Positions 43,646 to 63,693 of a stretch of DNA of 64,000 nucleotides are shown one piece after another; positions within the stretch are counted from its first letter, which is position 1, and the number at the start of each line of letters is the position of its first letter. The stretch spans positions 64,001-128,000 of the forward strand of contig CAWDOY010000003.1 of the NCBI GenBank assembly GCA_963803975.1, written 5' to 3'. The DNA is from an uncultured delta proteobacterium. Lineage in GTDB: Bacteria > Desulfobacterota > WTBG01 > CAIYCZ01. The notes below the pieces were generated by a model. The model was not told where the DNA came from and did not search any database. It was given only the letters and a program-made list of their open reading frames with translations. The position numbers and the translations under genes were made by a program.

Positions 43646-45999
43646 GTGAAAAAAGATAGCAGCATAATTCTAAGGATATTATTCGTTGTCTGCCTGTTTC
43701 AGCTGATTGCCGGGTTATTATATGCCCCTGCTTCATTAGCGCAATGTCCACCCCAGGGTTATCCTGACTATACGGTTGATTGTTTTAATGCATGGTGCTG
43801 CAAGCAGGATGAAAGCTGTTGTTCTGACCTGTATGGCAATTATGGTTGCTGCCCGCCAGCCACCGTATGCTGCTATGATGAGAATGGATATGCTGACTGC
43901 TGTCCCTCAGGGCAAACAACTACCATCCCCTCAGCTACGACATCTACTGTCACGGGAGGAGAAACTACTACAACGACCATCCCGGCAGGAGAAACGACTA
44001 CAACTACCGTCCCCGCAGCCACTTCGTCTACTGTCCCGGGAGGCGTAACTACCACAACGACTCAGGGAGTCGGCGGCCCCGACACGTATCTGGCTGCAAT
44101 CAATATAACGGGAACCGGTGCTCAGGATTCGCCGCAACCCTCAGGAACGCTGCCCGGCACCAGCCCTTCGGAAGCAGCGCCGCTCATGGCTTACGAAGGC
44201 ATTGGTCGGCCTATGTCGTTAATCATCCAGGACAGGTTTTTCCCGCCGCTTGATAAAAAGCTGTATGAAAAATCGCTGGAGGCATTAAAGGAAGAGAGAC
44301 TGTCAGCAGGGCCTAAGATTTCAACCTATGCTATCGGTGATGTAAAACAGTTCTGGGTAAAAGATGACAAGGATTTTGCCTGGCGGCAGGTCACGGCAAC
44401 CAATAAAAAAGAGGGAGCGCACAGCCTTATCTTTGTTGATAATACATCTGAACATGGCAGACGCAACACTTGAAACATACTCCTCAGAATTCGAGACAAT
44501 GTTTACCATTATTTCGAATAATATAGGTACATACAGTGACCGGGATGGGAACGGCAAAATTATAATATTAATCTATGACATTAATGATGGTGCCACTGTA
44601 CAGACAGGATGGCTGGCAGGATATTTCTGGAGCAAGGATTATATAAATGATTCGGTAACACAGCCCCAGGGGGTGCGGAGCAATGAAACGGACATGATTT
44701 ACATCCGAGGGAATGATCCTACCGGATGGACTACGGCGAATGGTGACTTTGCCGCAACCACGCTCACCACGCTCATCCATGAATACCAGCATATGGTGCA
44801 TTTCGGCATCATCTACTGGCAACCCCAGCTGGCCGGGAAAACCGGGAGCTTTGACGATACCTGGATAAATGAGATGATGTCCATGGCGTCAGAGACCATG
44901 TACTTCAAGAAAAAGCTTGCAGATAATCCGTCCTATACGTATGACGGAATGCTGCCGGGCGGATACCTGGAAGACCGGATACGGTTTTATAATAAAGACC
45001 CAAAAAACAGCATCCGCAATGGCCACGGTCTGGTCTACTGGGACAATAAGGGAGATGTGTTCTCAAATTACTCTCTGGCATATATCTTTGGGCAGTATCT
45101 TAACCTCCAGTCCAGCAGCGGGCAGGGAATTTATAAAGAGATATTGGATTATATGACGACAAACTCCGTGTATGATTACCGGGCAGTTGAAGAAGTGGCA
45201 AAACAGCGGCTGACGGGGATTGGAAGCTGGGAAGACCTCATTAAAAGCTGGGCGGTAGCCAATATACTCAACCAGGCAAGCGGTCTGTACGGGTACAAGG
45301 GCGCTTTCAGCCTGACGCCCCATGGCCCCACATCCGCAAATGTCACCATCCACAGCGGCGGCGTAGTGTACCGGACATTAAACGGCAACTGGACCAGGCC
45401 TGGTGATGCCGGGGCTGGCATTACGTATTGTGGTTTCAATTCTTCGGGTGAAGTAACCTGTAAATCTTCAGGTGGGGCTACAACGACGATTCCCGGAAAT
45501 AACTGCCCGCCTGAGTACCCGGTTGACTGCAATAATGGCTACTGCTGCCCGAGCAACCTGCCGGTCTGCGGTACCGGTAATAAGGTGGGAAGATGTTTAA
45601 GAAAGGGAATCTGCGTCAGCTCACTCATGTTCGGCAAAGATTCATATGAGAATAATCTCCTGCGATCATTCCGGGATCAGGTTCTTGAGCAGAACAGCAG
45701 AGGCGCGGAATTATCAAACCTCTATTACCAGCATACCGGCGAGCTGGCGGTTATTATCATGGGAGACCGGGAACTATACAAAGAGGTGATGGATGTTGCC
45801 CTGCAGGTGCTTCCTGAGATTGAGTCTGCGCTGCAGGGCTCGGAGATTGTTCATAGAAAAAGATCTGGAAAATAAAATTAGTCAGCTGTGCGAAAGGATA
45901 GCGCGCAAGGCAAGCCCGGATTTGAGGATGGCGGTTGAGAAGATCAGGGAAGACTTGAAAACCGGCCAGCTGTTGCGCGAACTCAGGCTCGCGAGGTAA
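43646..45999 (+). CDS. Secreted M30(hyicolysin)-like zinc metalloprotease with Cys-rich modules, Thr linker and CFI-box-CTERM-like tail (indels near 44445 and 45850)
   Basis: Signal peptide; Cys-rich N-terminus; TTTIP repeats; 'D.DGNGKI.IL','GYF...D','SNE.DM.Y','TL.HEYQHMVH..WINE.MS'; C-terminal 6-Cys module and 'C......LRSFRDQVL....G..L..LYY'. Confidence 0.8.
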
Positions 46000-46017
46000 C
46001 CAGCGGCCGGCAAACGA

Positions 46018-46559
46018 TCACTTTTTCTTTTCAAACGAGAGAGAGGCCGAATTAATGCAGTAGCGCAGCCCTGTCGGTTTTGGCCCGTCATCAAAAACAT
46101 GGCCAAGGTGCGCGTCACAGCGGCTGCACAGCACTTCGGTGCGCTCCATGAAATAACTCTTGTCTGTTACCGTCCGGATATTTTCTTTTACAACAGGCTG
46201 CCAGAAGCTCGGCCAGCCAGTGCCTGATTCAAACTTTGTATCGGAAGAGAACAGATCAGTCCCGCAGCACACGCACGTGTATGTCCCCTCCTCATGATTA
46301 TTCCAGTATTTCCCGGTAAACGGCGGCTCAGTGCCTTTTTTACGCGCTACATCAAACTGCTCGGGGTGAGTTCCTTCTTCCATTCCTGGTCACTTTTTAT
46401 AACCTTATCAGCCATAATAAATCCTTTTTGCTTTACTGAGTAAAGCCTGATTTGATTTTTTGTAGCGGGTATGTTCTGTTCACCAGCAAAAGCAAGAACG
46501 GAAAATGCAACTATTAATAAAGAATAAAATGATGTGATTGGCTTCATAATATCAAACAT
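46018..46559 (-). CDS. msrB: Peptide-methionine (R)-S-oxide reductase MsrB with signal peptide (frameshift near 46355)
   Basis: 'K.DQEWKK.LT', [41 protein letters not shown]. Confidence 0.95.
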
Positions 46560-46705
46560 TAAATAGCAAATATATGATTATATAATTAGCATGTGATGTA
46601 ACTTGTTACAAGGTGTATGGTAAAAGAATGACATTCAGATGAAAAATGAATGCAAAACAACCCCTGAAAACTGATAATAAATGCTTATATAGATAAGAGA
46701 TTTTA

Positions 46706-46750
46706 AATTAAAAAGAGCAGGGCCATTATCTGACACTGCTCTTTTTAATT
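46706..46750. terminator. Bidirectional intrinsic terminator
   Basis: Perfect 15-bp arms aattaaaaagagcag / ctgctctttttaatt. Confidence 0.8.
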
Positions 46751-46798
46751 GTTTTGTAATGACCCTTACTTGGAATTTTTATGTTATTATCAATTTAA

Positions 46799-46912
46799 TT
46801 ATTGATATGTCGGACATGGACTTGGTGAGCAGGTCTGGGCAGGGCCCAGCAATTCAATAATTTCATCTTCTGAATAAGTTATAACTTTTGGTGCTTCATA
46901 TTCTTTTTTCAT
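46799..46912 (-). CDS. 37-aa small protein, RiPP-precursor-like (missing from the ORF track)
   Basis: MKKEYEAPKVITYSEDEIIELLGPAQTCSPSPCPTYQ*; strong AAAGGAGGA RBS 8 nt upstream; terminator downstream. Confidence 0.7.
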   Translation of the reverse strand: MKKEYEAPKVITYSEDEIIELLGPAQTCSPSPCPTYQ

Positions 46913-47074
46913 TCTTAATGTCCTCCTTTAAACTTTATATCAGTCTTTTATTATATAGTTTATTAATGTAGTGGTTGCTGCTGCTGAATAATTATCAGTA
47001 CAGCTAAACCAAATTCCGTGTAATCATAGCTTTATTAAAGCACCGCCTCCTGTTACGTTTATACAAGCCCTGAA

Positions 47075-47689
47075 TTACGGGGTGCAGGTAGGGATTGGGT
47101 AGTTAGCTGAATCCCAAGGACTAACTTTTGTGTATCCGCCCACATGACACTTAAAGCAGAAATTTCCTCCACTAATGCCGTTAAATCCACCTGGATAATT
47201 ATAGTCAGTGCACAAATTTGCTTCATGTTGCGGAATTAGCAGGAGGTATAATGGGATTATTCCCCGTTACATAGCATTGGCTGAAATTCTGGCAGAACCG
47301 CCTCCCTGAAAATTAATATTTTCAATTCTATAAGCATACTGGGCACTGGTGTCCAGAAGCGCCTGGGGATACAGAGTGACACTCTTGCGGTCATCAGAAG
47401 CAGCCACGTCACAGGCAACATCAGTAAAGAACATAGTCAAATCCGCTAAACTAGCTGCAGCTTCTTGACACAGTAGGTCATGTCAGGCTGATTGCCGATC
47501 ATGGCAACCGGTGAGTCAAGATCAATGAGCATGATAGTATTGGTTGTCAGCCCGTTCCAGGACTCCGGGAGAGCCAGGATAGCCGCTGGTGATGCTTGCT
47601 CCAAAACAGGGCCAATCAGTACAAGCATGGGGAGTAGCTCATAATGCCAGTAGAAGCTATTGCAGAGTCTTTTTAAAAAGTGGTTTCAT
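47075..47689 (-). CDS. Putative exported Ig-like-domain protein with a CxxCH heme motif (heavily frameshifted)
   Basis: AAGGAG RBS before ATG 47689; fragments 'SDDRKSVTLYPQALLDTSAQY' (Ig-like) and C-terminal 'NFCFKCHVGG...TCTP*'. Confidence 0.45.
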
Positions 47690-47724
47690 GGGATATCTCC
47701 TTTTTATTAGATTTGCTTTTGTTA

Positions 47725-49268
47725 TCAGACAATAAACTTTCTTAATTGTTTTACCATCATCTCTTATCACATGGACTGAGCAGGCCATGACACGGGTCAA
47801 AGGTATGTATTACCCTGACCGCTTCAATCGGCTGTGCTGCATTCAGCAACAGGAGTGCCGATGAGCGCCTGTTCTATCGCGCCCTTGCTCCCGTCAGCAT
47901 CCAGTGGTGAAGCATTCCAGCAGGTTGGTGTTATGATCTGGTAGTGGGAAATCTTTCTCAGTAGTCATCATATTTGACCCAGTGGCCAAGGGCACCTCTG
48001 ATTGCCTCGGTTAGATCCGCTGCCACTGCCATTGGCAGGAATTTCATAGGGAATGAAAGAAGGACTCTGAAAGCATTGCGCTGCAGGTCTGTCAACCAGC
48101 CAACCATGGCGTTCGCAACTTTTAGCGACTCATAGCGGCCTGACTAATCTCCGGTCAGCAACAGAAATCTGGGCAGGATAGTCTCCTGTTACCACCATGC
48201 GTGCCAGCGGGCCCACTTCATACACATCTTTAGTTGACGCCATTGGTTTTATACCGGGGTGCCTTAAGCCAGGAATACGCCCCTGCCTTGCCAGGGAAAG
48301 CACTGGGAGGAGTGGGCGCAGGATTAGATAGGAGTAATTATGGGGTTAGTTACTCCATTGAACGGCTGCAGATTGTCAGCACCTGTGTACCATGCGTGGA
48401 GTACGTCCTCAACAATATTATTTTGATCCATAACCGGGACAGTATTTGCACCATCGTAAATCCCTCGTCTTCAAGAAGGCAGGTATTCACGCTGTCTGTG
48501 CCCTGCGGAAATACACCGTAGCTCAGTAATTTTCCAGGGCCGACACCAATGCTTAAATAATCAGCATAATAACCGCCGGGACTAAAAAGAAGGTTCATAT
48601 CCGGAATGTAGCTGCCGGTGATGAAGGTCTTTATATCGGTGAGCAGACGTGGTCATGGTGGCAATATCAGCAGCTGACGGGTGTCGCAGAATTCCCGCCT
48701 CCGATGAAGGTTGCTCCATGGGGCTGTTTGCCCGCCGAGGATTGCGCAGATGGTGTGGGCTTTTCTCCTGGCGGTAAGGGCTGCAACGTAATTCCCGGTT
48801 AATGCGTTTGTGTCTGCTAAATTAGGCCTCCTGTCGCCTCCATAGATCGGCGCCCAGGGGCCCAGTTCAAGGTGCCAGCGCCAAGGACCGTGGAGGACGG
48901 CATATCAATATAGTCCTGCAGCATAGAGGTGTAGCAGTGCAGGACGTGGCTGTGCAGAAATTCAGCGCCGTGAATGAGGTTGTGTCATGAGCCTGCCCTT
49001 GGGCGTGGGCTGAACATTTGCAGCAACATCCATGGCATTTACCGCTGCAATGGCATGGATAGTCGGGACAAACGCCGCACACCCGCTGGGTAATGAGCGG
49101 TGCATCAAGGGGTTCCTGGCCGACCATGAAATTTTCAAACCCTCGATACATGTTCCCTGCCATCTGTGCATCTGTTACCGCCCCATGGTAGTGTTGTCAA
49201 TGGTCAGGATGACCTTCAAGATGTCCTTCAATCCTTGGTATTGGATCTATTATTGTTGTTACAGCCAT
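47725..49268 (-). CDS. [NiFe]-hydrogenase large subunit, group 1 (many indels)
   Basis: 'MAVTTIIDPIPRIEGHL', 'RGFE', L1 'TQRVCGVCP', 'YSW.KAPRY', 'EVGPLAR', 'RGALGHW', 'YQII.PT.WN', L2 'FDPC/MACSVHV' with a 1-nt insertion and a C-terminal extension. Confidence 0.88.
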
Positions 49269-49290
49269 AGTGTGCTCCTTTTATAATAAG

Positions 49291-50375
49291 TCAATTGTTA
49301 TGTTCTAATTGTTTTAATTCGGGAACGGTAATGTTATTTATTTGACGGTTAAAAGGAACTGCTGGAAACATCGGTTGTGAGCAGCCGATGCAGAGATGGT
49401 TAATGCCAGGGGCATTGCACCATTTTCCGTGTGCCGCCAGTTCCCGTGCTGTTCCATCCCCTTGTGGGGCAGTCCGCATAGGTTTCTGTGCCTCTGCAGC
49501 CGACTGCTCTTAAACATTTAACCGGGTCACCGACACTGAATCGGCAAAGTTGCCCGACGTCATGCTGCGGTTTTCTCGGGCATTGGCTGTGAACGGTATT
49601 TTGGAAAAGAGGTATCACTGTTGTTCCGATGGTGACGGTTGTCGGTCTTCTATAACTATCTCGTGGAGGCAGAATAGCAGCCAGTTGGTGCTAATAATAT
49701 GTACAATTGACAGTACTATCCAGTCAGGATGTACCGGGCATCCGGGGATATAAGACGCTTCTTGCGACGGTAGTTTATAATTCGTATTCCAGCGTAGCCC
49801 ACATAAGGTGCACTCCAGTATGGATTGGCGGTGATTGCTTCTGGGTACATTCTGGAACTGATTCCCCCCGATGGCATTTACTCCACCATAAGCAGGCGCA
49901 GGCACCCACATAGATTACAGCCTTTGCGCGCTGCTCCCACCGGTTAAAGGCATCAATCAACATTCATGACTCCAACTGCGCAGTAGTGCTGTCTTCTCCT
50001 ACAATGGCATAGCCATTAAGATTGCTTAAAGCACCCGGTTAAGACAAGAATATATGGTGTCGTTGGGTAATTATCAGTATACCGCCTTTGCCTGCATCAA
50101 TGGCCATTTGCCCGGATGCCCCCATGAGAACGCTTTCGATATTTGAGTTCAATGTTATTCAGCAGGACACTTTCAATGCCGGCAGATACGCCATCAAAAT
50201 AATTGGCAAGCGATACAACGCATCCTGAATCCCCAAGCCCTTCAAACCATATGACCGGCGGTCTTCCTGAGCCAGCTAATGCCTCATTCAGTTTGAACAT
50301 GTCAAACTGAGTTGCACCTACTGCTGCAGCTGAATAGGCAGCCATCCGTAAAAAGTCTCGACGTGATATTTTCAT
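49291..50375 (-). CDS. [NiFe]-hydrogenase small subunit with Tat signal (many indels)
   Basis: 'SRRDFLR' Tat motif, 'PPVIWFEGLGDSGC', 'VG.CA..GG', 'PGCPVHPDW', 'H..CPR','CL..GC.G..T.ADC','WN..WC..CIGC'. Confidence 0.88.
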
Positions 50376-50414
50376 AATAAGTTCTCCCTATAAAAGGTTA
50401 TTGTTACAAATCAT

Positions 50415-51407
50415 TTAGTTTTGATGGAATAGAGAGTATATCCATCGCGGAGTTGCCCTGACCGGTTTATGTTCGGTTACAGTGCCGGCTGTATCAACGT
50501 CTTCAAGTTTGTATATGTATATAATGCCATTTCTTACATCATCATCTACGTAGGTATATTCTGCTCCGGATGTTGCAGTGCCCTTTGCCGGAATCAGCGT
50601 GTCATTCAGTTTGGTCATCTCGGATGAACCAATGACACCGCGATAAATATTGAAGCCTGCCGTGTCTATCTCGCTCTCAGTCCTCCACATAAGTGTTACT
50701 TCACCATCTCCAGGGATTGCTGAAAAATTTGAAAGTTCAATTACCGTTGGTATTGCTGTAGTGGTAGTTGTTGAACCTGTAATAGTTGTTGTTGTGGTTG
50801 GTGGTGGAGTTCCCTCATAGATAACCCACACCACATTCTGGATCAAGCTGCAGTTGAGGACATTCGAGAACTGGACAGTGATAGTGCGTGTATCTTGATC
50901 ATTCCAGGGTGATGTAATATTCCAATAGGGATAGCTGACGCCGCTCTGGACCGATTGTACTGGTGTAATTGCGGGAAAAAGCTCTGTTGAAGCAAAAGAT
51001 GCAGGGTAAACATCCGCAGACCAGTCCATGATACCATGTATTGTTTGATGCTGTTGCCGTCTGGTCTGCATTAGAGAAAATGCTTGTCCCATCATAGGCC
51101 ATTGTTGACCAGGCAGCTGATGGTTGTGAACAAAGATTATTTGACCACAGAAAAAGATTAACTAAGCGGGGGTTTGTGAGTGTGTCGCCAGAAATATTTT
51201 TCAGTTCATAAGTCTTGGTTAAAGTATTTGATACAGGGTCATAAGAATAGGTCATATTTTGGAGTTGGATCGCAGTACTTAAGGGATCTGGTGCTGCTAA
51301 GTAGGTTAAGCTGCTTGGACGTGGGCAGGGTTGGCTGTCATTGCCGCTATGGCTATGAGCAGGGCAATGGCAATACTGTTTAGTGATGAACTACACCTTC
51401 GTTTCAT
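50415..51407 (-). CDS. Secreted protein with Thr linker and C-terminal FN3-like 'ELS.F.A..V.L.W.T.SE.D..GFN.YR' domain (frameshifted)
   Basis: ATG 51407 with AAGGAG RBS and signal-like N-terminus; ORFs 50899..51255 and 50415..51095 are consecutive frames. Confidence 0.6.
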
Positions 51408-51819
51408 AGTTAATCTCCTTTTGCTATTGTTTTTTGCCAGCACTATCGGTTTTTAGAACACGACATTGTTACCTCCTTATATTTATTTTTACGACTATCT
51501 TATAATTTTTTATGTTACTGAACAGGCACCGCGTACTGCATTTACTTTCATTGCAAACAGTATTTAACCATCATAATAGTAGACATTATGGGTAATCAAT
51601 TTTTAAAAATTAATTACTATGTTTATTTTTAGATGCGTTGCTGGGAAGGTAGGTGTTTTTTCTGTTGCTGTAATTCGTTTTATGTAATTAAGTATCTTCT
51701 TTAAAAATCAAAATGTCAAGAGGATAATGACTGTATTCGAAAAAAAATAAAATTAACAATAATGCCATAAAAATTAAAATAGCATAAAATAGAAAATATA
51801 TTAATTAATTATTTGAGCA

Positions 51820-52311
51820 TTATTTTTTATCTGTAATTATTATTGCTTTTTTTATCAATTCTTTAACAATTAACGCTATTAGTTTAGGGACCTTATCCTT
51901 TAAGCAATCACTGAGTTCCATGCCCCATGAGCTCATGTCCTCTGGTTCTATGCCAAAGAATATAATTTCAGGATTAATACCCAGCATCTTCCACTGATCA
52001 AGTGCCTCAAGAAACCCTATATCATGCACGGACATGGCCAGAGGAGTTGCAAAGTTGATATCATTGCGCGTGAAGCGATAGATAGTGCCGGGTTCACTGC
52101 CGGCTTTAACTGCATCGACAACGATTATAGTTTTACAATCCTCTATTTCATTTATAAGCGCAAAACCCAGAGTGCCTCCGTCAACTATTTTAACCGGGGG
52201 AGAGAAAGTATATTGCTGCTGCAGCGCTTCAATAACTCTTACGCCTACGCCTTCATCGCGGAGTAAAATATTACCTAAACCTATTATAGCGATACTGCTG
52301 TCGTGTTTCAT
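51820..52311 (-). CDS. Hydrogenase maturation endopeptidase (HyaD/HybD family)
   Basis: GLGN.L..DEGVGV, DGGT, VDA, S.H, GIEP. Confidence 0.95.
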   Translation of the reverse strand: MKHDSSIAIIGLGNILLRDEGVGVRVIEALQQQYTFSPPVKIVDGGTLGFALINEIEDCKTIIVVDAVKAGSEPGTIYRFTRNDINFATPLAMSVHDIGFLEALDQWKMLGINPEIIFFGIEPEDMSSWGMELSDCLKDKVPKLIALIVKELIKKAIIITDKK

Positions 52312-52408
52312 ATTTTATATTAATATGATACATAATAAGTACTTGTCAATGAGATAGGTCTAAAAAAGTAAACTGACAAAATAAAAAATTGCCCTGGAGT
52401 ATCCAAAT

Positions 52409-53185
52409 ATGAAGGACAACATTAAATTAGCAGTTACCGGCAAGGGCGGGGTTGGTAAAACAACCATCTCAGCATTGTTGTGCAAAGCCTTAAGCGAGAG
52501 GGGGTACACGGTGCTGGCGGTAGATGGTGATCCCAGCGCCAATCTGGCATCAGCCCTTGGCTTCCCGGAGGATATGGTCATTACCCCGCTGGTGGAAATG
52601 AAGGAGCTTATCGAGGAGAGAATCGGGGCCGCGCCCGGCAGCATGGGCGGGATGTTAAAGTTAAACCCGAAGGTGGATGATCTTCCGGAAAAACTATGGA
52701 AAGAAAAAGATGGCATAAAGCTCATGGTGATGGGAACGGTAAAGAAAGGCGGCGGCGGATGCATGTGCCCTGAGAATATCATACTGAAATCGATGATTCA
52801 GAATTTGCTTCTGCAGCGCAATGAAGCCGTGATACTGGACATGGAGGCAGGGGTGGAGCACCTGGGCAGGGCTACTGCGCAGGCAGTTGATCAGCTTATT
52901 GTTGTTGTTGAGCCGGGCAGGAGAAGTATTGATACGGCATTTAAAATCAGAGAGCTTGCGGAAGATATACGGCTCAACAAAATATCTGTTATAGTTAACA
53001 AAGTCAGGGATGATGCAGATATTGATTTCGTACAAAAAAATTGTGCAGGTCTCTCCGTGCTTGGGTACCTGCAGTTTGACCAGGGAATTGTGCGGTCTGA
53101 CATGGAGCGGGTGCCGCCCTGGGAATTGAGCCTTCAATCACTTGCAGCAATGCGGGAGATAGCCGGGAAACTAATCGGGAGCTGA
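52409..53185 (+). CDS. cooC: CooC-family nickel-insertion ATPase
   Basis: GKGGVGKT, D.DP..NL, 'LNPKVDD', GGGCMCP (CxC Ni motif), DMEAGVEHLGR.T. Confidence 0.9.
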   Translation: MKDNIKLAVTGKGGVGKTTISALLCKALSERGYTVLAVDGDPSANLASALGFPEDMVITPLVEMKELIEERIGAAPGSMGGMLKLNPKVDDLPEKLWKEKDGIKLMVMGTVKKGGGGCMCPENIILKSMIQNLLLQRNEAVILDMEAGVEHLGRATAQAVDQLIVVVEPGRRSIDTAFKIRELAEDIRLNKISVIVNKVRDDADIDFVQKNCAGLSVLGYLQFDQGIVRSDMERVPPWELSLQSLAAMREIAGKLIGS

Positions 53186-53215
53186 ATTGCTCCTTGAGCT
53201 GAAGGATATATTACC

Positions 53216-54146
53216 GTGAAAACCGTTATTATCGGCCCGGGAGCCATGGGCTGTCTGTATGCATTTCTGCTCACCAGAGCAGGTTATGAAGCGTGGCTGC
53301 TGGATAACAGCGAAGACCGCGCTGAACGGATACGGGCTCAGGGGTTGAAGATTGAGGGGGTGAGCGGAGCGTATCAGCTGCCGTTCCCGAGAATAAGCGC
53401 TTCCCCGGACGTAATCGGTAAGGCAGACCTGCTGATTCTTTTTGTTAAAGCCTATAGCACGGCAACAGCCCTTGAAAGCGCGCGGGAGCTGGTTACTGCC
53501 AATACCATGATTCTAACGCTGCAGAACGGTATCGGCAATGTGGAATCCATACGGGACGCGTATCCACAGAATCCAATTGTTGCCGGCACTACCGCACAGG
53601 GGGCCACGCTGCTTGGCAGCGGGCACATACGGCATGCAGGCATGGGTGAGACCATCATCGGCGGAATTGATGCGAACAGCACGTTTCACGCAAAGCTGAT
53701 CAAAGATCTGTTTATGAGTGCGTATATCCCAACTGAAATGACTGAGGATGTTCACGGGAGTTTTGTGGGGAAAGCTGCTGGTCAACTGCGGCATCAATCC
53801 CCTCACGGCAATCATGAGGGTACCTAATGGGCAGCTGCCAAAAATTCCCGACCTTTGTGAAGTAATGAGCAGGGTTGTTGAGGAAGGCGCGGCCATTGCA
53901 CAAAGCGCCGGTATAACGCTGCCCTACAGTGACCCGGTGGCAAAGGTCATGGAGGTTTGTGCGGCAACAGCCGGTAACCGCTCTTCAATGCTGCAGGACA
54001 TCGAAGCAGGGAAAAAGACCGAGATTAATTATCTGAATGGTGCGCTTGTCAGATACGGTACAGAAACGGGAGTTGCAGCGCCGGTTAACAGTTTTCTTAC
54101 TCACCTGGTACAGGCATTGGAAACGGGCAGCAGTGCGGTGCACTGA
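53216..54146 (+). CDS. panE: 2-dehydropantoate 2-reductase (frameshift near 53752)
   Basis: GPGAMG, VKAY, LQNG, W.KL.VN..INP, SSMLQD..G..TEI..LNG. Confidence 0.93.
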
Positions 54147-54176
54147 ACACGGTATAAACCCGTTACGCAGCGCTCA

Positions 54177-55046
54177 TTACTTGGCACTTTTCTTCAGCTC
54201 CTGCTCAACCTGCTGCGACAGAGCATCGATAGAGCGCCCTCTAAAAGCCCTGCCATTAATAAAAACTGACGGGACACCTCTAATGCCCAGTTTCTTGCCG
54301 AGGTTCAGATCTTCAGCAATGATTGTTTTCAAGGCGTTATCCTCACGCTCTTTATCAAAGGCTTCCATGTTGATGCCGGTCTGCTGCGCGTACTCTTTGA
54401 TGGTCTGATCATTTAAATTTTTAAAATTCTTGAAATAGAGGCTGCTTAGCTCACGGTATTTATTCTGTTTTGCCGCGGCAAGGGCTGCCATAGCTGCTTT
54501 TTCTGCAAACGGGTGCATGCGCAAGGGGAAATGCTTGATAACAAGACACACTTTTTGGGGATATTTATCCAGGAGTTGTTCTATCACCGGATATATTGAT
54601 GTGCAGTAGGGGCACTGGAAGTCAAGAAAGGCAACTATACGAACCGGAGCATTTTTATCGCCAATAACCGGTGACCGGCCTATCTCGATATCATAGACTG
54701 TTGAAATTTTTATAATGGAAACTTTTTTCCCGTCAGTGCTGGCAAGAAACAGCGACTCTCCATCGGGGGCAACGGACATATGGGAATAATCATCGGTTAC
54801 AGCAATCTTGTCGGTAATTTCATTGCGCTCAATTGAGTAAACATAAATACATTTATTGCCCAGTATATATGCCTTGGTTCCATCAGGGGAATTGGCAATA
54901 TCTAAGGGCTTTTCTTCAAGGTTCAGTGTTTTAATCACTTCCGTCTCAATGGCGGCATGGGCAATTCCGGCCTTAGAACATATTACACATACCATAGCAG
55001 AGACAAGAACTGCCAGGACTGAAGCACTAATTCTCATTCGTTTCAT
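54177..55046 (-). CDS. DsbA-family thioredoxin with a partial N-terminal YVTN/WD-like propeller segment
   Basis: Signal peptide, 'SPDG' blades, 'DFQCPYC', 'KHFPL..H', 'GVPS.FING'. Confidence 0.88.
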   Translation of the reverse strand: MKRMRISASVLAVLVSAMVCVICSKAGIAHAAIETEVIKTLNLEEKPLDIANSPDGTKAYILGNKCIYVYSIERNEITDKIAVTDDYSHMSVAPDGESLFLASTDGKKVSIIKISTVYDIEIGRSPVIGDKNAPVRIVAFLDFQCPYCTSIYPVIEQLLDKYPQKVCLVIKHFPLRMHPFAEKAAMAALAAAKQNKYRELSSLYFKNFKNLNDQTIKEYAQQTGINMEAFDKEREDNALKTIIAEDLNLGKKLGIRGVPSVFINGRAFRGRSIDALSQQVEQELKKSAK

Positions 55047-55230
55047 AGAACCCCCTTTAGCACGAGTGCGTTGTATAGAGATACTGTCTTATAATTTAAT
55101 GACTCACCAGTTTGTATAATAAATTATTATTTTTTACAATAGAAATCTGAACAGGACGCGCTCTCATAATAACAGCTATATAAATTTCGGGGAAAGTCCT
55201 GAAATCTGAACGGTTGCAGACTTATTTTTA

Positions 55231-55260
55231 TTGACATTTAAGCATGCCTTCCCTTATAAA
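55231..55260 (+). promoter_or_regulatory. Putative sigma70 promoter of fusA2
   Basis: TTGACA-N18-TATAAA about 100 nt upstream of the start codon. Confidence 0.45.
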
Positions 55261-55363
55261 TAAATGTTTACAGTATATATTAGTTCAATGCCCATCATCA
55301 GTTACTGGCTGATCATTTTCCATAATCACGGTAAAAATTAACCACTGGAGAAGGAAAACAGGC

Positions 55364-57451
55364 ATGAAAAAATATGAATCCAAGGACATACGCAATGTTG
55401 CTCTCGTTGGCCACGGCAAATCAGGAAAAACCTCGTTAGCAGAAACCTTCCTCTATAACGGAAAAGCCACCGATCGTCTCGGCAGGGTTGATAACGGCGA
55501 CTCGGTACTGGACTTTGACCCGGAAGAAAAAGCACGACAATTGACTATTAACAGCGCTTTTCATCACGTTAACTGGAAAAAGTGCATGGTTAATATAATT
55601 GATACGCCAGGGGATGCAAACTTTATTGCAGATACACACAACAGCCTTCAAGCGGCTGATGGTTCGATACTTGTTATTGAAGCAACCTCGGGCGTTCAGG
55701 TGATAACTGAAAAGGTATGGCAATACCTGAATGAGTTTAAGTTGCCGCGCCTGATTGTGATTAATAAACTCGACAGGGAAAATTCAGATTTTTACGCGAC
55801 CCTGGATAACATCAAAAACAAACTCAAAATAAACCCGCTGGCACTGCAAATCCCTATCGGCAGGGAAGCCGATTTTAAAGGTGTTGTTGACCTGGTTAAA
55901 ATGAAAGGTTTTGTTTTTGCTGATGATGAGTCGGGAGATTTTAAAGAAAGCGAGATTCCCGATGACTGCAGGGAGCAGGCTGCTGCCCAGCGCCAGAAAA
56001 TGATTGAAGATGTTGCTGAAGCACATGAAGAACTGCTGGAAAAATTTTTAGACGGACAGGAACTCTCGCCGGAGGAAATAAGCACCGGCATCAAAAAGGG
56101 CATTTTAAATCAGACCCTCATTCCCGTACTGTGCGGATCAGCGCTGAGCAATATAGGCATTAAGACCATAATGGATGCAGTGGTAGAATATCTGCCATCT
56201 CCCCTGGATAGAGGAGCGTTAGAAGTTTTAGATCTCAAGACAAAAGAAAAAAAGAAGCTGGAGCCGAAAGAAGCCGCCCCCCTTGCTGCTTTTGTATTTA
56301 AAACCATTGCTGATCCATACGCAGGAAAGCTCACTATCTTCAGAGTTTTCGCGGGGACCCTGAATGCTGACAGCACGGTGTTCAATGCAACCAAAAAGGT
56401 TAAGGAAAAGATAGGGCAGATTCTGCTGCTGGAAGGGAAGGGGCAGAAGCCGACGGAAAGCGCTATTACCGGAGATATTGTGGCCCTGGCAAAACTCAGG
56501 GAGACAACCACCGGTGACACGTTCTGTGATGAAAAGAATGAACTGTCTTTCGATAAGATAAAATTTCCCAGCCCGGTCATTTCATATTCACTTGCTCCTA
56601 AAAGCCGCGGTGACGAAGATAAAATGAGCAATGCGCTCGCCCGGCTTATAGAAGAAGACCCTTCGCTCACCATTCAACGGGAAGAACAGACCCATGAATT
56701 TATCCTCTCCGGCATGGGGCAGATACATCTGGATGCCACGATTGAAAAATTAAAAAGAAAATTCGGCGTTGAAGTGGAAACCGACATCCCGAAAATTCCC
56801 TACAAGGAGACGATCAAAGGAAAAACCAGAATACAGGGCAAGTATAAAAAGCAGTCCGGCGGGCGGGGCCAGTATGGCGATGCCTGGCTTGAAATCGAGC
56901 CGCTGCCCCACGGTGCCGGTTTCGAATTTGCTGATAAGATAGTGGGCGGGTCCATACCAAGAAATTATATACCATCTGTTGAGAAGGGCGTTGCTGAGTC
57001 GATGCATGAGGGCGTGCTGGCAGGATATCCGGTTGTTGACATTAAAGTTTCAGTTGTTGACGGGTCCTACCATGAAGTTGATTCATCTGATATGGCTTTT
57101 AAAATAGCTGCCTCCATGGGGTTTAAGAAGGGCTTTATGGAATGCCATCCCATTCTGCTTGAGCCGGTTATGAATGTTGAAGTTACCGTTCCGGAGGAAA
57201 TGACCGGTGATATTATCGGCGACATGAACAGCAGAAGGGGACGGGTGCTTGGCATGGACCAGGGCGTGGGCGGCCAGGTGGTCAAGGCAACAGCGCCGCT
57301 GGCTGAAATGCTCCGCTATGCGTCTGACCTCACTTCGATCACCAGCGGCAGGGGAATGTTCACCATGGAATTTGATCATTACGATGAAGTTCCGGCGCAT
57401 TTGAGTGAAAAAATAATTGCTGCAGCAAAAACCGAAAAAACGGAAAAATAA
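55364..57451 (+). CDS. fusA: Elongation factor G, EF-G2-type paralogue
   Basis: GHGKSGKT, DTPG (DTPGDANF rather than HVDF), NKLD, KQSGGRGQYG, YHEVDSS; not in an rpsL-rpsG-tuf context. Confidence 0.93.
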   Translation: MKKYESKDIRNVALVGHGKSGKTSLAETFLYNGKATDRLGRVDNGDSVLDFDPEEKARQLTINSAFHHVNWKKCMVNIIDTPGDANFIADTHNSLQAADGSILVIEATSGVQVITEKVWQYLNEFKLPRLIVINKLDRENSDFYATLDNIKNKLKINPLALQIPIGREADFKGVVDLVKMKGFVFADDESGDFKESEIPDDCREQAAAQRQKMIEDVAEAHEELLEKFLDGQELSPEEISTGIKKGILNQTLIPVLCGSALSNIGIKTIMDAVVEYLPSPLDRGALEVLDLKTKEKKKLEPKEAAPLAAFVFKTIADPYAGKLTIFRVFAGTLNADSTVFNATKKVKEKIGQILLLEGKGQKPTESAITGDIVALAKLRETTTGDTFCDEKNELSFDKIKFPSPVISYSLAPKSRGDEDKMSNALARLIEEDPSLTIQREEQTHEFILSGMGQIHLDATIEKLKRKFGVEVETDIPKIPYKETIKGKTRIQGKYKKQSGGRGQYGDAWLEIEPLPHGAGFEFADKIVGGSIPRNYIPSVEKGVAESMHEGVLAGYPVVDIKVSVVDGSYHEVDSSDMAFKIAASMGFKKGFMECHPILLEPVMNVEVTVPEEMTGDIIGDMNSRRGRVLGMDQGVGGQVVKATAPLAEMLRYASDLTSITSGRGMFTMEFDHYDEVPAHLSEKIIAAAKTEKTEK

Positions 57452-57468
57452 AATTTATAGCATTCTCT

Positions 57469-57978
57469 ATGGATAACGAAAACGTTGTTGACGAATCGCA
57501 GTTTCCCAAGGAACTGATTGAGGAAAAGGAAGAACCGAAGGGGGCGCCGCCGGAGCAGAAGATATCCGAGTCACTCTATGGCAAAATCATGATGATGTCG
57601 GTAAGCGAAAAAATCAAACTGGCCACCATCGGCAACAGGGAAGCACGCAATATTTTAATAAAGGAATCCAACAGAATTGTTCTGAGCGCAGTTATTAACA
57701 GTCCGAAGATGACTGAGGATGATGCACTCATGTATGCATCAAACCGGAGCCTGTCAGACGAAGTAATCAAGCTCATAACCCTGAAAAAAGAGTTTCTGCA
57801 GAATTATAGAATTAAACTTGCCCTGGTGACTAATCCCAAAACACCTCCAACCATTTCCCTCAAACTGCTGAGCCACGTTATGGAAAAAGACCTGCGCAGT
57901 TTGTCAAAAGACAAAAACGTTAACCCGCTAATTTCGCGTCAGGCCATGCGCGTGCTATCCAAACAGGGTAAGATATAA
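57469..57978 (+). CDS. Conserved hypothetical protein (helical-repeat-like)
   Basis: 'M.VSEKIKLA..GN.EAR.ILI..N..V..AV..SP','LVTNPKTP'; clean 169-aa ORF in an operon. Confidence 0.7.
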   Translation: MDNENVVDESQFPKELIEEKEEPKGAPPEQKISESLYGKIMMMSVSEKIKLATIGNREARNILIKESNRIVLSAVINSPKMTEDDALMYASNRSLSDEVIKLITLKKEFLQNYRIKLALVTNPKTPPTISLKLLSHVMEKDLRSLSKDKNVNPLISRQAMRVLSKQGKI

Positions 57979-58003
57979 AACCACGGGGATTTTTAAAGAT
58001 AGT

Positions 58004-58489
58004 ATGAAGGCAGGTATTTTAACTATCAGCGATAAAGGCGCGCGTCAGGAACGCGTCGATACCAGCGGCCCTGCCGTGGCTGCAGTGCTCGCGGAAATCG
58101 GCGCCACGATAGAAAAATATGAAATTATACCTGATGAGAAGGAAGTCATTGCGCGAAAGCTGGTCGAATACGCTGATACCCTGAGCCTTGATTTAGTGGT
58201 GACCACCGGCGGAACCGGTGTGGCGCCGCGGGATGTTACGCCGGATGCAACAAAGATGGTTATTGAAAAGGAAGTTCCCGGCATGGCGGAAGCCATGAGA
58301 ATGGAAAGCTTAAAGAAGACGCCTCATGCGGTTATATCACGGGCCCTCGCAGGAATACGGGGCAGGACGCTCATTATAAATCTCCCCGGAAGCCCCCGGG
58401 GAGCCACTGAAAATCTCCGCACAATCCTCAGCGCAATCCCCCACGCAGTATCAAAAATACAGGGGGACCCCAGCGAGTGTGCAACGTAG
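58004..58489 (+). CDS. mog: Molybdopterin adenylyltransferase MogA/MoaB
   Basis: TISD, D.SG, TTGGTG..PRD.TPDAT, SR..AG.R...IINLPGSP. Confidence 0.93.
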   Translation: MKAGILTISDKGARQERVDTSGPAVAAVLAEIGATIEKYEIIPDEKEVIARKLVEYADTLSLDLVVTTGGTGVAPRDVTPDATKMVIEKEVPGMAEAMRMESLKKTPHAVISRALAGIRGRTLIINLPGSPRGATENLRTILSAIPHAVSKIQGDPSECAT

Positions 58490-58548
58490 CACCCCTGTTC
58501 ACAGTCTCTCTGGAAACCCTTACTGACAGCGCTTATGAAATATTGACA

Positions 58549-58576
58549 AAGGCAGGGCCATTGCTGACCCTGCCTT
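58549..58576. terminator. Hairpin between convergent genes
   Basis: aaggcaggg...ccctgcctt stem. Confidence 0.6.
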
Positions 58577-58598
58577 ACATTTCATTCACCTTGAAGGG

Positions 58599-59256
58599 CT
58601 ATAAAGCCTTTTTAATTCCAGGTATTAATGTTTTAATCCTCTGTTTTAGTTTTGCTTTTAACTCAGGCTTATCTTCAATCAATTTTATTAGTATTGGTGA
58701 ATACTCATAATAAAGTACAACCAACCTTTCCCCTTTCTCTGTTTTCAAAAGTATTTTATCTCTAAATTCCCTAAGTACATTTAAACATTCATCATCATCT
58801 TGCAATATTGTTTCTGCTACACAAGCAGGCCCGCCGCCACCGCCTGTAGAACACTTGCCTACATTTGCACCAGTTCCGCATACCGGATAATCAGATGGGC
58901 AGCAATACCCGTTCCCGCAGTCTATCGGATAATCAGCAGGGCATCCGCCGCCGCCACCGCCACCGTCTTTACCACACTTGCCTACATTTTCACCAGTTCC
59001 GCATACCGGATAATCAGATGGGCAGCAATACCCGTTCCCGCAGTCTATCGGATAATCAGCAGGGCATCCTGCGGCAGTTGACATTGACTGCTCGGGGATT
59101 ATGAAACCATCAATTCCACCGTCCTTTATAAACGCATTAATTAACTCTCCTGAATTATTATCTGTTGCATAAGCCGGACAATTAAAAAGAATTAAACAAC
59201 ACAACAACACCGAAGACAGACATAGTATTAATTTTAATGTGAAGACATTTTTTCAT
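58599..59256 (-). CDS. Secreted protein: two 6-Cys modules plus a CFI-box-CTERM-like domain
   Basis: Signal peptide (A-run indel just after ATG 59256), 2x CPADYPIDCGNGYCCPSDYPVCGTG.NVGKC with poly-Gly linkers, then 'CVAE....LREFRDKIL..T..G..LV.LYY..SP'. Confidence 0.8.
58851..59069. repeat. Intragenic direct repeat, 2 x 96 bp
   Basis: 58851-58946 and 58974-59069 match except for one base (tttgcacc vs ttttcacc). Confidence 0.9.
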
Positions 59257-59748
59257 AACATATCCCCTTTCCAAAAATTGACTGTATACCACCAGAAGTG
59301 ACAAACTTTTTACTCTCTCACCTCCTTTCTGCGACGAACTACACTTTATTACATCCCCTCCGGAGAGTCAAGTCAAGTTTTTAGTTGAATTTTCTGACCT
59401 GCTATGTAAATAGACCCTGTATGGCTTGCCCATTTCCTGTAAATCAATGGCATCCAGTTTCTTCTCACCTCCTGTATAACGTCTCCGCATCATCATGCCC
59501 ATTTCCAATTAAAATTGCATCCAGTCTCTTCTTCCCCTGTGAAATTATCCGTACCTCCGATCTGTCAGTTCTTCACGACCATACAACTGCTCAAATACTT
59601 TTCTTGACTCTTTTCTCTTACTGGTATTTAATTTACATTAGTGGCTCCTTTATTTTTTAGGGCGTCCGTGGATTATGCCACGGGGGGCCACTACCTCAAA
59701 TTTCAAAAAAATGCAATATATCCACCCTCTTGATGAGAGGAGGCATCT

Positions 59749-61592
59749 ATGGTCAATCAACTATTAGAACTGCAGGCAACATTATTGAGGTATCTGTATA
59801 TCGCCATAAGCGTAATGTTCACAGTTATGGCTGTTCCACAGCAGGGTTATTCTCTTGAACCCCCCCGCACAGGCGAAATAGAACAGTATAAAAAAGACGG
59901 CTCATTTCCCGACCGCAAGTGGTTTGCAGAGTATCTGCAAAACAATAAATTTCATCCTGACGTAATCAAGCGGAAAATTGCACGGATGAAGTCCTCTCAG
60001 CATGGCAGCCAGATTACCACAAAAACTCTGTTCCCCTATAAAACAGGGCTTCCGGCAGAGGGTTCGCCTAAAATAGTCGTGCTGTTAGTTGACTTTCCCA
60101 ACTACCCGCATACCACTGACCCATCTGTGTTTGCAGAGAAACTATTTGGCAACGGAGACCCGAGTGCAATACCATTTGACAGCCTGAAAAATTATTATCA
60201 GCGTTCTTCGTATGGCAAGCTCAACATACAGGGAACGGTACTGGGCTGGTACCGGGCACGTCACCGGCGGGGGTTCTATAGCCTTGGATATCAAACCCGT
60301 CACAGTATAAACGGCGTTAAAAACCTCATCAAAGAAGCTTTCAATCATTATGCTGCTGAGCATGACTTTTCACAGTATGATAACAATGGAGATGGCAAAA
60401 TCGATTATTTTTGTATTATCTGGACCGGACCTGACAGGGGCTGGAGTTCAATCTGGTGGGGCTGGTGCAACAATACCGGAAGCTTGTTTGAAAATGATCC
60501 CTTTACCGTAAGCGGAAAAGGCCTTAGCGTTTTTTCCTGGCAATGGGAAAAAAATGAAGGACAAAATCAGCCTGAATATACCCCCCAGACAATCATTCAT
60601 GAAACAGGGCATGGTCTTGGGTTGCCGGACTACTATGATTATGATGAAAAAAAGGGGCCCAGCGGCGGCGTGGGCGGACTTGATATAATGGATGGCAACG
60701 ACTATGACCACAACTGCTTCAGCAAGTGGATGCTGGAATGGTTAACGCCTTCGTGCCAGATCACCAGCGGTGCATATTCCGTATCCCTAAAGCCTACTGC
60801 TATAACTAAAGAGTGTGTGGCAATAATGCCCGGGACCGGCACCATAGATCCTTTTTCAGAATTCTTCATGGTACAGAATCGCACTGCGGGAATAGAAAAT
60901 GATTTTAGATTACCCAATAGCGGTTTATTCATCTGGCATATAGATGCCCGGCTAAACCAGGACGGGACCAATTTTCAATTTGATAACAGTAACACTGAGC
61001 ACAAGCTTCTTCGGCTCATGGAAGCTGACGGCAGAGAACACCTGGAAACTTTAGGCAGGGTAAAAGAGGCATATTTTGATCCGCTTGATTTTTATGTGCA
61101 GGGCACAGAACTCACGCCAAATTCAACGCCAAACAGCAGGGATTATGCGGGAAACGACACGGGCATTATAGTGAGGAACATCGTGGCAGACCCGGCTACT
61201 CAAACAATGATGGCGGATTGTGCCATCGGTGAATATTCCTCTACCCAAACGACGATTCCAGACAACCCAACAACATCAATTCCCGGAAACATATCTACAA
61301 CAACCATCATCCCGGGACAAACCACTTCAACAATAATTCCAGGAGACACAACAACCACTATTCCTGGCGGCGAGACGACAACAACAATTCCAGATTTCAT
61401 AACAACAACTACTGCAATTGATGTATTCACAACAACAATACCAGGGGGGGTAACTACAACAATAATATCATCAAATTGTCCTCCAGAGTATCCTATAGAC
61501 TGTTATAACGGCTATTGCTGCCCTGCGGATTATCCATACTGCGGTATGGGCTTTATATGGGCTTTTGCTTTACAGAACCGCCTGCTCAATGA
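59749..61592 (+). CDS. Secreted M6-family (immune inhibitor A-like) metalloprotease with Thr repeats and a C-terminal 6-Cys module
   Basis: 'VLLVDFP','SL..YY..SSYGKL','DFSQYD.NGDG.ID','HETGHGLGLPDYYD','WMLEWL'; TTTIPG repeats; CPPEYPIDCYNGYCCPADYPYCG. A probable indel near 61553 restores '..GFC..PAQ*' ending at 61592. Confidence 0.85.
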
Positions 61593-61639
61593 TTATTTAA
61601 ACTCGCAGCAAGAGCTTTTATTCAAAACAAGGAGGGTAT

Positions 61640-63693
61640 ATGCAAAGAATAAGAACGTATATTTTACCAATTATTAGTCTTAGTTTATTTTTCCTTAATG
61701 GATTATTAAACACTGCACATGGTGCTAACGGAATAAAAATATTTGCAAACGAGCAAAGCAGACAAAATATTCTACACCCATGCCTACCAGAAAGACGGCG
61801 CTTGGTTTTCAAACCTCTACGCCATGAATCCTGATGGGACAGAACCAACGCAGGTCACCGATTTTTATCCTGCCAATGCATCAGAAGCAAGCATTTCAAC
61901 TGATGGGCAAATATCTTATATTTCACGTCAAATTATCAATCTTATAGAAGCTACAATTATGAAGACATTTTCCGGCTTGAATTCAACGGTCTTAAGCTGA
62001 CCAGAATTACCGGCATGGAATATGTCTCTGCAAAAAAAACCGGTTCAGTTGCACAAAAAATAACTGATGACACAGACAGAAGAAATTTCACCAGAGCAGC
62101 TATGTAGCATCATTTCAGGGATCGACGACGTATTATAATGTGCAAAAACTGATTGATACGACAGGCACACTTGATGGCGTCCCTGCCACTAAGGTCTGGG
62201 TTAAGGTACTTAAGGATAAATTCATAGGATCGGTTGGTTTTGTTGATGTGCCCGCGGGTAAAACAGCTGTTATCAATATGAAACTGAGCGATGGTAATTA
62301 TCTGGCATACAGCCCCAGCTGTTCACAAGGATGGATCAAAATTTGCCGGCATTTATGCACATGCTTTTTATGATTGGACTATGATATTCAGAGACCTCAG
62401 TCCTAATATCGTACAGACCAATCTGACCACCTGGGATACCAGCGGCAAGATGATTGACCAGCAGCAGAACAGCGAGACGGGAGATGCCTATCCGCAGTAC
62501 TCTCCGGATGGCAGCAAAATTGCCTATACCCGGGGTGGCGGAGGGAAGGAGTCGGTGGTTGTTGTTCCCAGTAATAGTCTCAATGCTGTCCCTACCGTTG
62601 TTGCAGAAGGAGGATTTGACACAGCAACGGTTAAAAGCTTTGGGTACTCTAATCCAGCCTGGTCATTGGATGGCACAAAAATAGTTTGTACCTATACGGT
62701 TTCCTCATCCGCTTCGATAAATGGTAATTTAGTATTACTCAATAGCGATGGAACCGGAAATAAAATTCAACTCACCAATGTTCCTAAGAATGCTATACCG
62801 GTGCAGCCTGCTTTCAGCCCTGACGGCGAATGGGTTGCCTACGCACTGGTTACTTCAAAGGGTTCAATATTACGTGATACTGATCTTATGACCCATAACT
62901 TTACTGCCAATATATTCAAGCAGTCCATATCCGGAGGAGAGCCCGTACAGCTTACTACTGACGATGCTGCCGGTGAGCCAAACTGGGGAACTATAGGCCA
63001 GGTTACACCACCTGGTGACAACAACGACAACAGTGCCGGGGAGGAGATGAATGCCCGGAAGACTGGCCAATACCCTGCGGTGGCGGTGATGGAGACTGCT
63101 GCTCCCCTGACTACCCCAGCTGCTGTTCCAAACAGAACCCCGTATTGAAAAAAATGTGCTGCCCGGCTGATTTTCCCTATTGCGGCCGCCTGGGCAGGAA
63201 ATGCTATAAGGATCCTCCCGGGATCTGCGCCTTGACAGTTGTAGCTAAGGGAGATCCTGATGTACTGAAAACACTATACCGGTTGCGGGATACTATTTTG
63301 CGTCATACTGATAAGGGCAAGCAATATAAGGCTCTTTATTACAAACATTCTCCCGAGTTTATTAAAATCCTCAATGAAGATGCTGCACTGATGGAGCAGG
63401 CAGAAAATGTTCTCTACTGGATGCTGCCAGGCATTGAATCATTTACTGCAAGCCGTAAAATCACTATGACGCAAGATATGCTCCAGGAGATGCTCAGGCT
63501 CTGTGAAAGCATCAGCAAAAAAGCCAGCCCTGATTTAAAGCAAACAATAACACTAATAGAAAAAGACCTCAGGCAGGGACAGCTCTTTGATGACCTGGTC
63601 AAATTTGATCCTGCTGTGCTTCTGCAAAAGCAGCCTGAAAGCGTAGAGCCAAAATCCCGTTTCTTGAAGACTTTTACAAGCGCTTCACCTTAA
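61640..63693 (+). CDS. TolB-like (PD40) beta-propeller secreted protein with Cys module and CFI-box-CTERM-like tail (several indels)
   Basis: Signal peptide; 'LY.MNPDGT','P.YSPDGSKIAY','PAWS.DG.KI','PAFSPDGEWVAY'; 'CPEDWPIPCGGGDGDCC..DYP.CC...CCPADFPYCG..G.KC'; 'C......LYRLRDTIL..T.KG....LYY.HSP'. Confidence 0.75.

Follow-up and report, generated by a model that had tools for sequence, protein, structure and literature searches.

A membrane-helix-free CFI-box-CTERM domain as a candidate surface tag on exported proteins of a Desulfobacterota-like class

What is the task of a C-terminal tail that recurs on secreted proteins of unrelated kinds? The question arises from a 64,000-nucleotide stretch of DNA from an uncultured delta proteobacterium (GenBank assembly GCA_963803975.1, contig CAWDOY010000003.1, positions 64,001 to 128,000), referred to here as the window. 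Between positions 43,646 and 63,693, it encodes several secreted proteins that share a cysteine-rich module and, in three cases, a common tail. An earlier interpretation made from the letters alone (the sequence-only reading) had taken linker, module and tail for one shuffled cassette serving surface display or the assembly of an extracellular proteolytic complex. Our analysis separates the two parts. Judged by profile matches, the tail is the catalogued CFI-box-CTERM domain (NCBIfam NF041770) in a form without a membrane helix, and the Cys module is, by its distribution, an optional mobile domain separate from the tag. We tentatively favor, with somewhat less than even confidence, a role of the tail as a retained folded tag that would hold Sec-exported proteins on the cell surface via a near-invariant Cys.

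The three tails form the C-termini of a secreted M30-like metalloprotease (45612–45996, + strand, continuing past a frame break near 45852), a cargo-less stand-alone protein (58602–58823, − strand) and a secreted PD40/TolB-like propeller protein (63226–63690, + strand). As the sequence-only reading had noted, the tail follows a module in these three genes and is missing from the M6 metalloprotease of the window. The resemblance to CFI-box-CTERM that it had recognized also holds: the NF041770 model matches the tail of the stand-alone protein with 50.3 bits, above its cut-off of 40 bits, and the M30 and propeller tails with 28–31 bits (E 1e-6 to 1e-7), under that cut-off. Tail and model share the core C...LRxFRD..L....G..Y/I..YY. 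Neither the CFI(ATAA) start motif nor a transmembrane (TM) segment was found in the three window tails, again as had been stated. The genome-wide extent of the family had been missed. A profile built from 34 local tail copies gives 37 matches in the genome (40 pieces of open reading frames (ORFs) were counted in a first pass), and the NF041770 model finds 31 places, 13 of them above its cut-off. One tract of this genome, G000:C26:9323-9915, is a truncated near-identical duplicate of the tailed gene C23:43740-44888, possibly an assembly or strain variant.

The Cys that opens the domain is kept in 113 of 119 tails of the class, although paralogues share only ~27% identity. The six Cys-less exceptions include two frame-broken ORFs and the lone copies of three genomes of one family (f3; L054–L056), where the sole remaining tail, carried by a PKD-type protein, has lost the Cys in all three. 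In the genome of the window, G000:C1:67648-68230 (L001) is a frame-broken gene that apparently encodes a signal peptide and a tail without Cys. Among 238 terminal domains, a set that comprised only Cys-bearing copies, the start follows the consensus C-[PAV]-[ALVF], with Pro directly after the Cys in 160 (67%); the residue before the Cys is variable, Pro being the commonest (42/238). Beyond the Cys, R, D, G and YY residues are conserved, and the tail core is near neutral in net charge (mean +1.0, standard deviation 3.9). The maximum 19-residue hydropathy among 120 in-class tails is 1.82, leaving no TM-like stretch, and none of 142 terminal-domain homologues has a TM-like tail. Among 21 hits from other classes of the phylum, 12 reach a hydropathy of at least 1.9 and 16 begin with CF[IVL]A. 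TM-less forms are present in those classes too, in small number.

The domain comes in two lengths, a short form of ~75 residues, as in the stand-alone protein, and a long form of ~128 residues, which adds a helical hairpin and often ends in G-[IV]-x-[IV], a terminal strand that short tails lack. The AlphaFold model of the long tail is a compact seven-helix domain (predicted local distance difference test (pLDDT) 93.3, predicted template modeling score 0.84), globular in the propeller protein, and a soluble, all-helical fold is predicted. Foldseek returned no match at E 0.001 for either the tail or the module model. The best structural neighbors of the tail included the lipid-binding bundle TIPE1-PE (Z 5.9, root-mean-square deviation (RMSD) 4.2, 119 residues aligned) and Gip1 (Z 5.5, RMSD 3.9). 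The top VIA Z-scores for the two models, 5.9 and 5.5, are at noise level and show neither a known nor a new fold. A sequence search of the PDB matched only designed helical bundles and vH1.

To whom, then, does the tail belong, and what does it carry? Across 41 genomes of the class its count is bimodal, with 28 genomes holding 9–63 copies (tail-rich) and 13 holding 0–2 (tail-poor). Two genomes of the same genus fall on either side, G005 with 23 tails and G019 with none, and the NF041770 model likewise finds no match in five zero-copy genomes of the class. Outside the class, 28 of 146 genomes of the phylum have 1–5 hits, in a search that scored at most 28 candidates per genome. At 50% identity, 16,449 clusters match the tail profile, canonical CFI-box proteins among them. 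Among the 150 best homologues, the domain is terminal in 142 and forms an internal tandem pair in seven. Such an internal pair, of the long form, is seen in SBBP/DUF7948 propeller proteins (P0040, P0041, P0050, P0062, P0094, P0142 and P0159), while P0055 and P0081 end in a Cys-less tandem pair of the long-form domain.

The cargos are diverse. In the genome of the window, tailed proteins carry M6, C25, alpha/beta hydrolase, PKD, Big_9 and BNR/sortilin domains, as well as NHL, FG-GAP, SBBP, PD40 and Lcl_C; 21 of 44 tail ORFs scanned have no Pfam match at 1e-5, and non-proteases are the majority of tail cargos. Of 81 tail ORFs of relatives, 70 are positive in a signal-peptide heuristic, all of them without a lipobox. 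The tail follows close kinship within a cargo family: it is present on 50 of 50 close homologues of the M30-like protease and on 0 of 41 distant ones, which also lack the module. M30 homologues of Bacillota have no tail, and two of the 41 distant homologues bear the cell-wall-binding repeats PF04122. At the other extreme, six genomes of family f4 (L057–L061, L065) encode cargo-less proteins of ~205 residues, consisting of a signal peptide, a Thr/Ser linker and a long tail, which resemble one another more than tail paralogues do.

In the explanation that we tentatively favor, tailed proteins would be exported by Sec and fold in the periplasm; in those bearing a module, the disulfides would be formed there by a general DsbA. 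An enzyme would join the unpaired Cys at the tail start to a lipid or envelope partner, type II secretion (T2SS) would take the folded protein to the surface, and the tail would remain attached, uncut. The observations on which this explanation builds are the C-terminal position, the signal peptides, the diversity of cargos, the lack of a TM helix, the conserved Cys and the bimodal counts. Type II secretion is the likely exit route by analogy; all 15 tail-rich genomes with a completeness of 90% or more carry GspD. Cys-dependent surface display routed through the T2SS has a precedent in MYXO-CTERM (PMC11980579). Retention of the tail after export is suggested by the cargo-less proteins, the internal tandem copies and Pro as the commonest residue before the Cys. 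The original proposal of a sorting or anchoring tag stands in part, in that the tail is shuffled onto unrelated exported proteins in a tag-like manner; the supposed tie to the module does not.

Several observations weigh against Cys-linked retention. Known sorting signals of the Cys type rely on a TM helix for their processing in the membrane, and this tail has none. Cys-less tails persist (L054–L056, L182, P0055, P0081), which indicates that the domain can be kept without its Cys. The M6 gene of the window and its L033 paralogue encode signal peptides but no tail. GspD also occurs in 7 of 13 tail-poor genomes, making it compatible with the proposed route but not specific to it. No candidate enzyme follows the tail either: exosortase/archaeosortase is missing from the window's own genome and found in only 5 of 28 tail-rich genomes, C25/PorU-like proteases show no association (10/28 tail-rich vs 6/13 tail-poor), and the CPBP hits do not form one orthologous group. 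Finally, tail-poor genomes are smaller (3.1 vs 4.0 Mb), which inflates any correlation, and related genomes are not independent.

The sequence-only reading had suggested profiling for a co-occurring sortase-like gene, and none of the three candidates, profiled over the 41 genomes, gives a clean orthologous match. For CPBP, presence of any member looks suggestive (24/28 tail-rich vs 3/13 tail-poor). The common subfamily, in an assignment that rests on 20 of 40 hits, sits in a hydrolase operon and is also present in the tail-poor genomes G010 and G023; the best hits from G005 and G016 belong to other subfamilies, and G004 has no CPBP. This subfamily lies immediately upstream of an alpha/beta hydrolase in 13 of 15 loci (L144–L150, L152, L154–L159, L161), and the single copy scanned has no NCBIfam name. 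The T2SS operons of 13 genomes, compared by eye, contain no additional gene that marks tail-rich genomes, and clustering of the neighbors of 89 tail loci mostly recovered the synteny of orthologous cargos. In five loci (L003, L104, L116, L129, L131), a tailed protein comes after genes for a TonB-dependent receptor and ExbB/ExbD/TonB, with phosphate-uptake and two-component genes close to loci of this type in some genomes.

That no partner enzyme tracks the tail also fits an enzyme-free explanation, in which the tail would bind the envelope non-covalently or self-associate, in the manner of SLH or CWB2 domains, with the Cys structural or engaged in an inter-chain disulfide. The existence of Cys-less, tandem and internal copies and the conservation of cargo-less proteins point in the same direction, as does the presence of the lipid-binding TIPE1-PE and of Gip1 among the best structural neighbors. 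However, the Z-scores of these neighbors are at the level of common helical arrangements, the tail core carries little net charge, and the Cys is retained in nearly all in-class tails despite the low identity of paralogues. We regard such binding as unlikely, though by no means far-fetched.

A further possibility is that the tail is cut off after export by a soluble periplasmic or surface protease or transpeptidase, or cleaves itself through an N-to-S acyl shift at the Cys, so that the cargo would end up bound to a lipid or glycan. The Cys lies at the exact domain boundary after a flexible linker, the conserved R, D, G and YY residues could make an active site, and canonical forms begin with GGCF, which recalls the Gly-Cys-Phe start of Hint domains. 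The Hint fold is all-beta, however, unlike the predicted all-helical fold of the tail. The position before the Cys varies, with Pro its commonest occupant, and a Pro there blocks intein-type cleavage. Moreover, cargo-less and internal copies make poor sense for a discarded tag, and C25 does not track the tail. Removal of the tail appears improbable on these grounds.

One subfamily of FadL-family barrels, whose best matches are BamG (E ~1e-22) and PorV/PorQ, both below cut-off, has a distribution that partly resembles that of the tail. It is present in 22 of 28 tail-rich, 4 of 13 tail-poor and 1 of 8 zero-copy genomes, occurs in G005 but was not found in its same-genus counterpart G019, and outside the class turns up in just 3 of 146 genomes, among them G101, which has long TM-less tails. 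In a second group of paralogues, four of seven copies lie no more than two genes upstream of large tailed proteins. These findings could be accommodated if the tail were an analogue of the C-terminal domains (CTDs) of type IX secretion (T9SS), docking on a 14-stranded PorV/BamG-like outer-membrane barrel that shuttles or tethers the cargo, with the long form's terminal G-[IV]-x-[IV] strand as the docking element. A precedent comes from PMC12578637 and PMC12611786, in which the surface lipoprotein BamH is a binding partner of BamG and PorV is said to shuttle substrates. Yet the barrel was not found in six tail-rich genomes, compared with ~3.2 expected from incompleteness, and a profile search repeated on five of them gave no hit. 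The main copy is part of a cyclase/CHAT-TPR operon, and the stretches examined around it contain no tail gene; G179 has the barrel without any tail, G064 has it with only a TM-type tail, and short tails lack the terminal strand. In addition, the presence of any CPBP correlates with the tail at least equally well, so that genome size may explain the profile. We consider docking of this kind doubtful, and the barrel as tail partner a weak lead. The operon itself encodes an adenylate cyclase/CHAT/TPR protein, the barrel and a TPR/CsgG-like lipoprotein (G000:C45:8927-15931; L209–L228, L235–L250); it often comes after an extracytoplasmic function sigma/anti-sigma pair and is common in the class, occurring in 3 of 146 other genomes of the phylum.

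We now turn to the Cys module. Its 6-Cys pattern, C-x7-C-x4-CC-x6-C-x8-C, lies at 45504–45596 (+ strand) in the M30-like protease and at 58974–59066 (− strand, copy 1) and 58851–58943 (− strand, copy 2) in the stand-alone protein, and begins at 61477 (+ strand) in the M6 protease, where the sixth Cys sits beyond a one-base frame break. Two expanded variants, like these copies, had been located correctly from the letters alone: a 12-Cys variant with the pattern C,C,(CC)x5, directly after the signal peptide of the M30-like protease (43745–43903, + strand), which a short-read contig covers with zero differences, and a 10-Cys variant with the pattern C,C,(CC)x3,C,C in the propeller (63052–63204, + strand). 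The series can be written C,C,(CC)n,C,C, n being 1 or 3. The search pattern, which was derived from the window copies themselves, has five matches among the 45,210 stop-to-stop ORFs of the genome, all inside the window, and none in each of 20 residue shuffles. Close homologues of the stand-alone protein carry 1–3 modules, and the contigs of one run omit one repeat unit.

Library scans of the window proteins assigned the module to no Pfam or NCBIfam family. The nearest is Granulin (PF00396), which matches the 12-Cys variant with 13.5 bits, under its cut-off of 20.9; modules range over 10–13.5 bits, and the spacing differs, so that membership in this family is not supported. Hevein-like chitin-binding domains carry a CCSxxG-aromatic motif. 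The module has CCP/A and no such motif, and the only hit in this direction, vH1, has an E of 4.2; this identity was rejected. Its structural model consists of short paired strands (pLDDT 56–81), with fold searches dominated by the attached tail. The module is an uncatalogued repeat of 6, 10 or 12 Cys whose spacing recalls that of granulins. Stacked beta-hairpins are predicted for it, and it is likely a protease-resistant binding or spacer domain spread by domain shuffling. A literature search on granulin-like modules in bacteria brought up nothing relevant in the texts available to it.

Are module and tail parts of one cassette? An obligate order of cargo, linker, module and tail, as first proposed, did not hold up: the module is found in only 3 of the 37 tailed proteins of the genome, 12 of the 150 top tail homologues and 26 of the 50 close M30 homologues, in many of which it directly follows the signal peptide. 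Within the class the two do co-occur: of the 28 tail-rich genomes 14 have the module and of the 13 tail-poor ones none, and tailed proteins are encoded by 9 of the 10 module loci that were inspected. In the wider public collection, by contrast, only 5 of 20 loci have a tail on the module protein. The 15 without one include small proteins of rhizobia and Burkholderiales as well as myxobacterial proteins, one of which exceeds the cut-off of MYXO-CTERM. As a general rule, the notion that module and tail form a single cassette which assembles a proteolytic complex outside the cell, with the local DsbA and MsrB as helpers, is very improbable and largely refuted: several of the tailed in-class module proteins are indeed proteases (M30, C1, M43-like), but 34 of 37 tails in the genome lack a module, the module is often N-terminal or without a tail, most tail cargos are not proteases, and the DsbA/MsrB neighborhood is not conserved.

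Both neighbors are present as described, a DsbA-like oxidase (CPYC) with a signal peptide (54177–55046, − strand) and an MsrB whose signal peptide lies in a shifted frame (46018–46547, − strand). Their suggested link to the module was not borne out, and both seem to be no more than ordinary bystanders. In nine other module loci of 2–20 kb, a DsbA gene lies near the module in one, from a very close relative, and MsrB in none; within the genome, the DsbA-like protein matches only itself. The M30-like gene and the DsbA region are separated by heavily frame-broken hydrogenase-like genes (46700–50375, − strand), and in locus L036 the distance between M30 and DsbA genes is much shorter, suggesting insertion or decay. 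A secreted protein at 50415–51255 (− strand) ends in another, FN3-like C-terminal domain, which has 40 matches in this genome and a distribution unlike that of the CFI tail (30 in G023, none in G004).

The genes that carry these parts are interrupted in the assembly. The M30-like (HExxH) metalloprotease (43646–45996, + strand) is one gene broken by two indels, with the order signal peptide, 12-Cys variant, Thr-rich linker, catalytic domain, 6-Cys module and long tail; PF10460 matches its close homologues, and the window protein itself has no direct Pfam match. The stand-alone protein (58599–59256, − strand) consists of a signal peptide, two 6-Cys modules and the short tail. The M6 metalloprotease (59749–61592, + strand) has a Thr-rich linker and the C-terminal module, and the propeller (61640–63693, + strand), again one gene broken by indels, combines the 10-Cys variant with a long tail. 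Compared with short-read contigs from other sediment and freshwater runs, the frame breaks of the M30 gene (~44446 and 45852) and of the propeller gene (61911–62325 and ~63020) are single extra bases absent from those contigs. Moreover, P0184, a protein 96% identical to the M30-like protease, is unbroken across both M30 breaks. The genes are therefore real, and the frame breaks checked in the M30 and propeller genes are assembly errors. In one short-read contig, which reaches from the M6 module to where the next gene begins, no tail lies in between. Contigs from RNA libraries overlap parts of the locus and are not evidence of transcription.

The CFI-box-CTERM domain itself was already catalogued; what is new is its soluble, TM-less form, the fact that this form has expanded in one class and been lost naturally in some of its lineages, and the Cys repeat, an uncatalogued addition to the disulfide-rich repeats of bacteria. 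A full-text literature search, with subscription papers and preprint supplements outside its scope, found no paper naming CFI-box-CTERM or NF041770. That the domain and its Cys are kept in dozens of copies while the membrane helix is dropped implies that the role of the helical core goes beyond that of a spacer in front of a membrane anchor. The losses, in a whole genus, in one of a same-genus pair and as Cys-less relics, make a partner searchable by profiling, and a soluble domain of 75–130 residues is easy to express and assay. Should the tail prove to be a surface tag, it would explain how sediment bacteria display hydrolases and could offer a new display tag.

How does the tail compare with known systems? 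With canonical CFI-box-CTERM (NF041770) it shares a homologous core and the C-terminal position, but it lacks the CFIATAA start, the TM helix and the Arg cluster. Its long form adds the helical hairpin and terminal strand, and tail-rich genomes hold 9–63 copies, compared with 1–5 elsewhere in the phylum sample. The MYXO-CTERM/JDVT-CTERM signals served by CPBP sortases (10.1101/2023.06.07.544157; PMC11980579) likewise place a Cys after a low-complexity linker, on dozens of unrelated cargos per genome with signal peptides, in the presence of a T2SS. They are, however, short tripartite signals cut in the membrane, whereas the present tail is a predicted folded soluble domain of 75–130 residues without a tracking CPBP orthologue. 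Among the traits of tripartite Cys sorting signals given in section 5 of 10.1101/2023.06.07.544157, the tail shows the terminal position, multiplicity, signal peptides, unrelated cargos and exchange of anchors among cargo homologues, but not a start motif (only the Cys is near-invariant), TM helix or basic cluster. By these traits, the tail behaves as a sorting tag would, without being a tripartite signal.

The module invites comparison with granulins, which form a beta-hairpin ladder according to PMC4527844. Both have a single Cys followed by runs of CC pairs, and versions with 6, 10 and 12 Cys; the stacked beta-hairpins predicted for the module would be a further likeness. The module differs in its score below the Pfam cut-off, its spacing, the lack of a fold match in Foldseek at the threshold given above, and the end of its 12-Cys copy, which is CC rather than two single Cys.

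The T9SS with PorV/PorU likewise has a folded C-terminal domain that is borne by many exported proteins, and the class does contain C25 proteases and PorV-like barrels. T9SS CTDs are Ig-like beta-sandwiches. The present tail differs in being predicted all-helical, in that C25 does not co-occur with it, and in that the barrel falls below family cut-offs. One broader scenario, which we hold to be decidedly unlikely as a whole, combines these elements: a sediment Desulfobacterota-like class would have turned CFI-box into a soluble helical export tag with a route of its own, in which export by Sec and type II secretion would be followed by anchoring through the Cys, and a PorV/BamG-like barrel would act as receptor. 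If true, it would amount to a T9SS-style CTD system built from unrelated parts, displaying dozens of enzymes and adhesins of up to ~2,800 residues.

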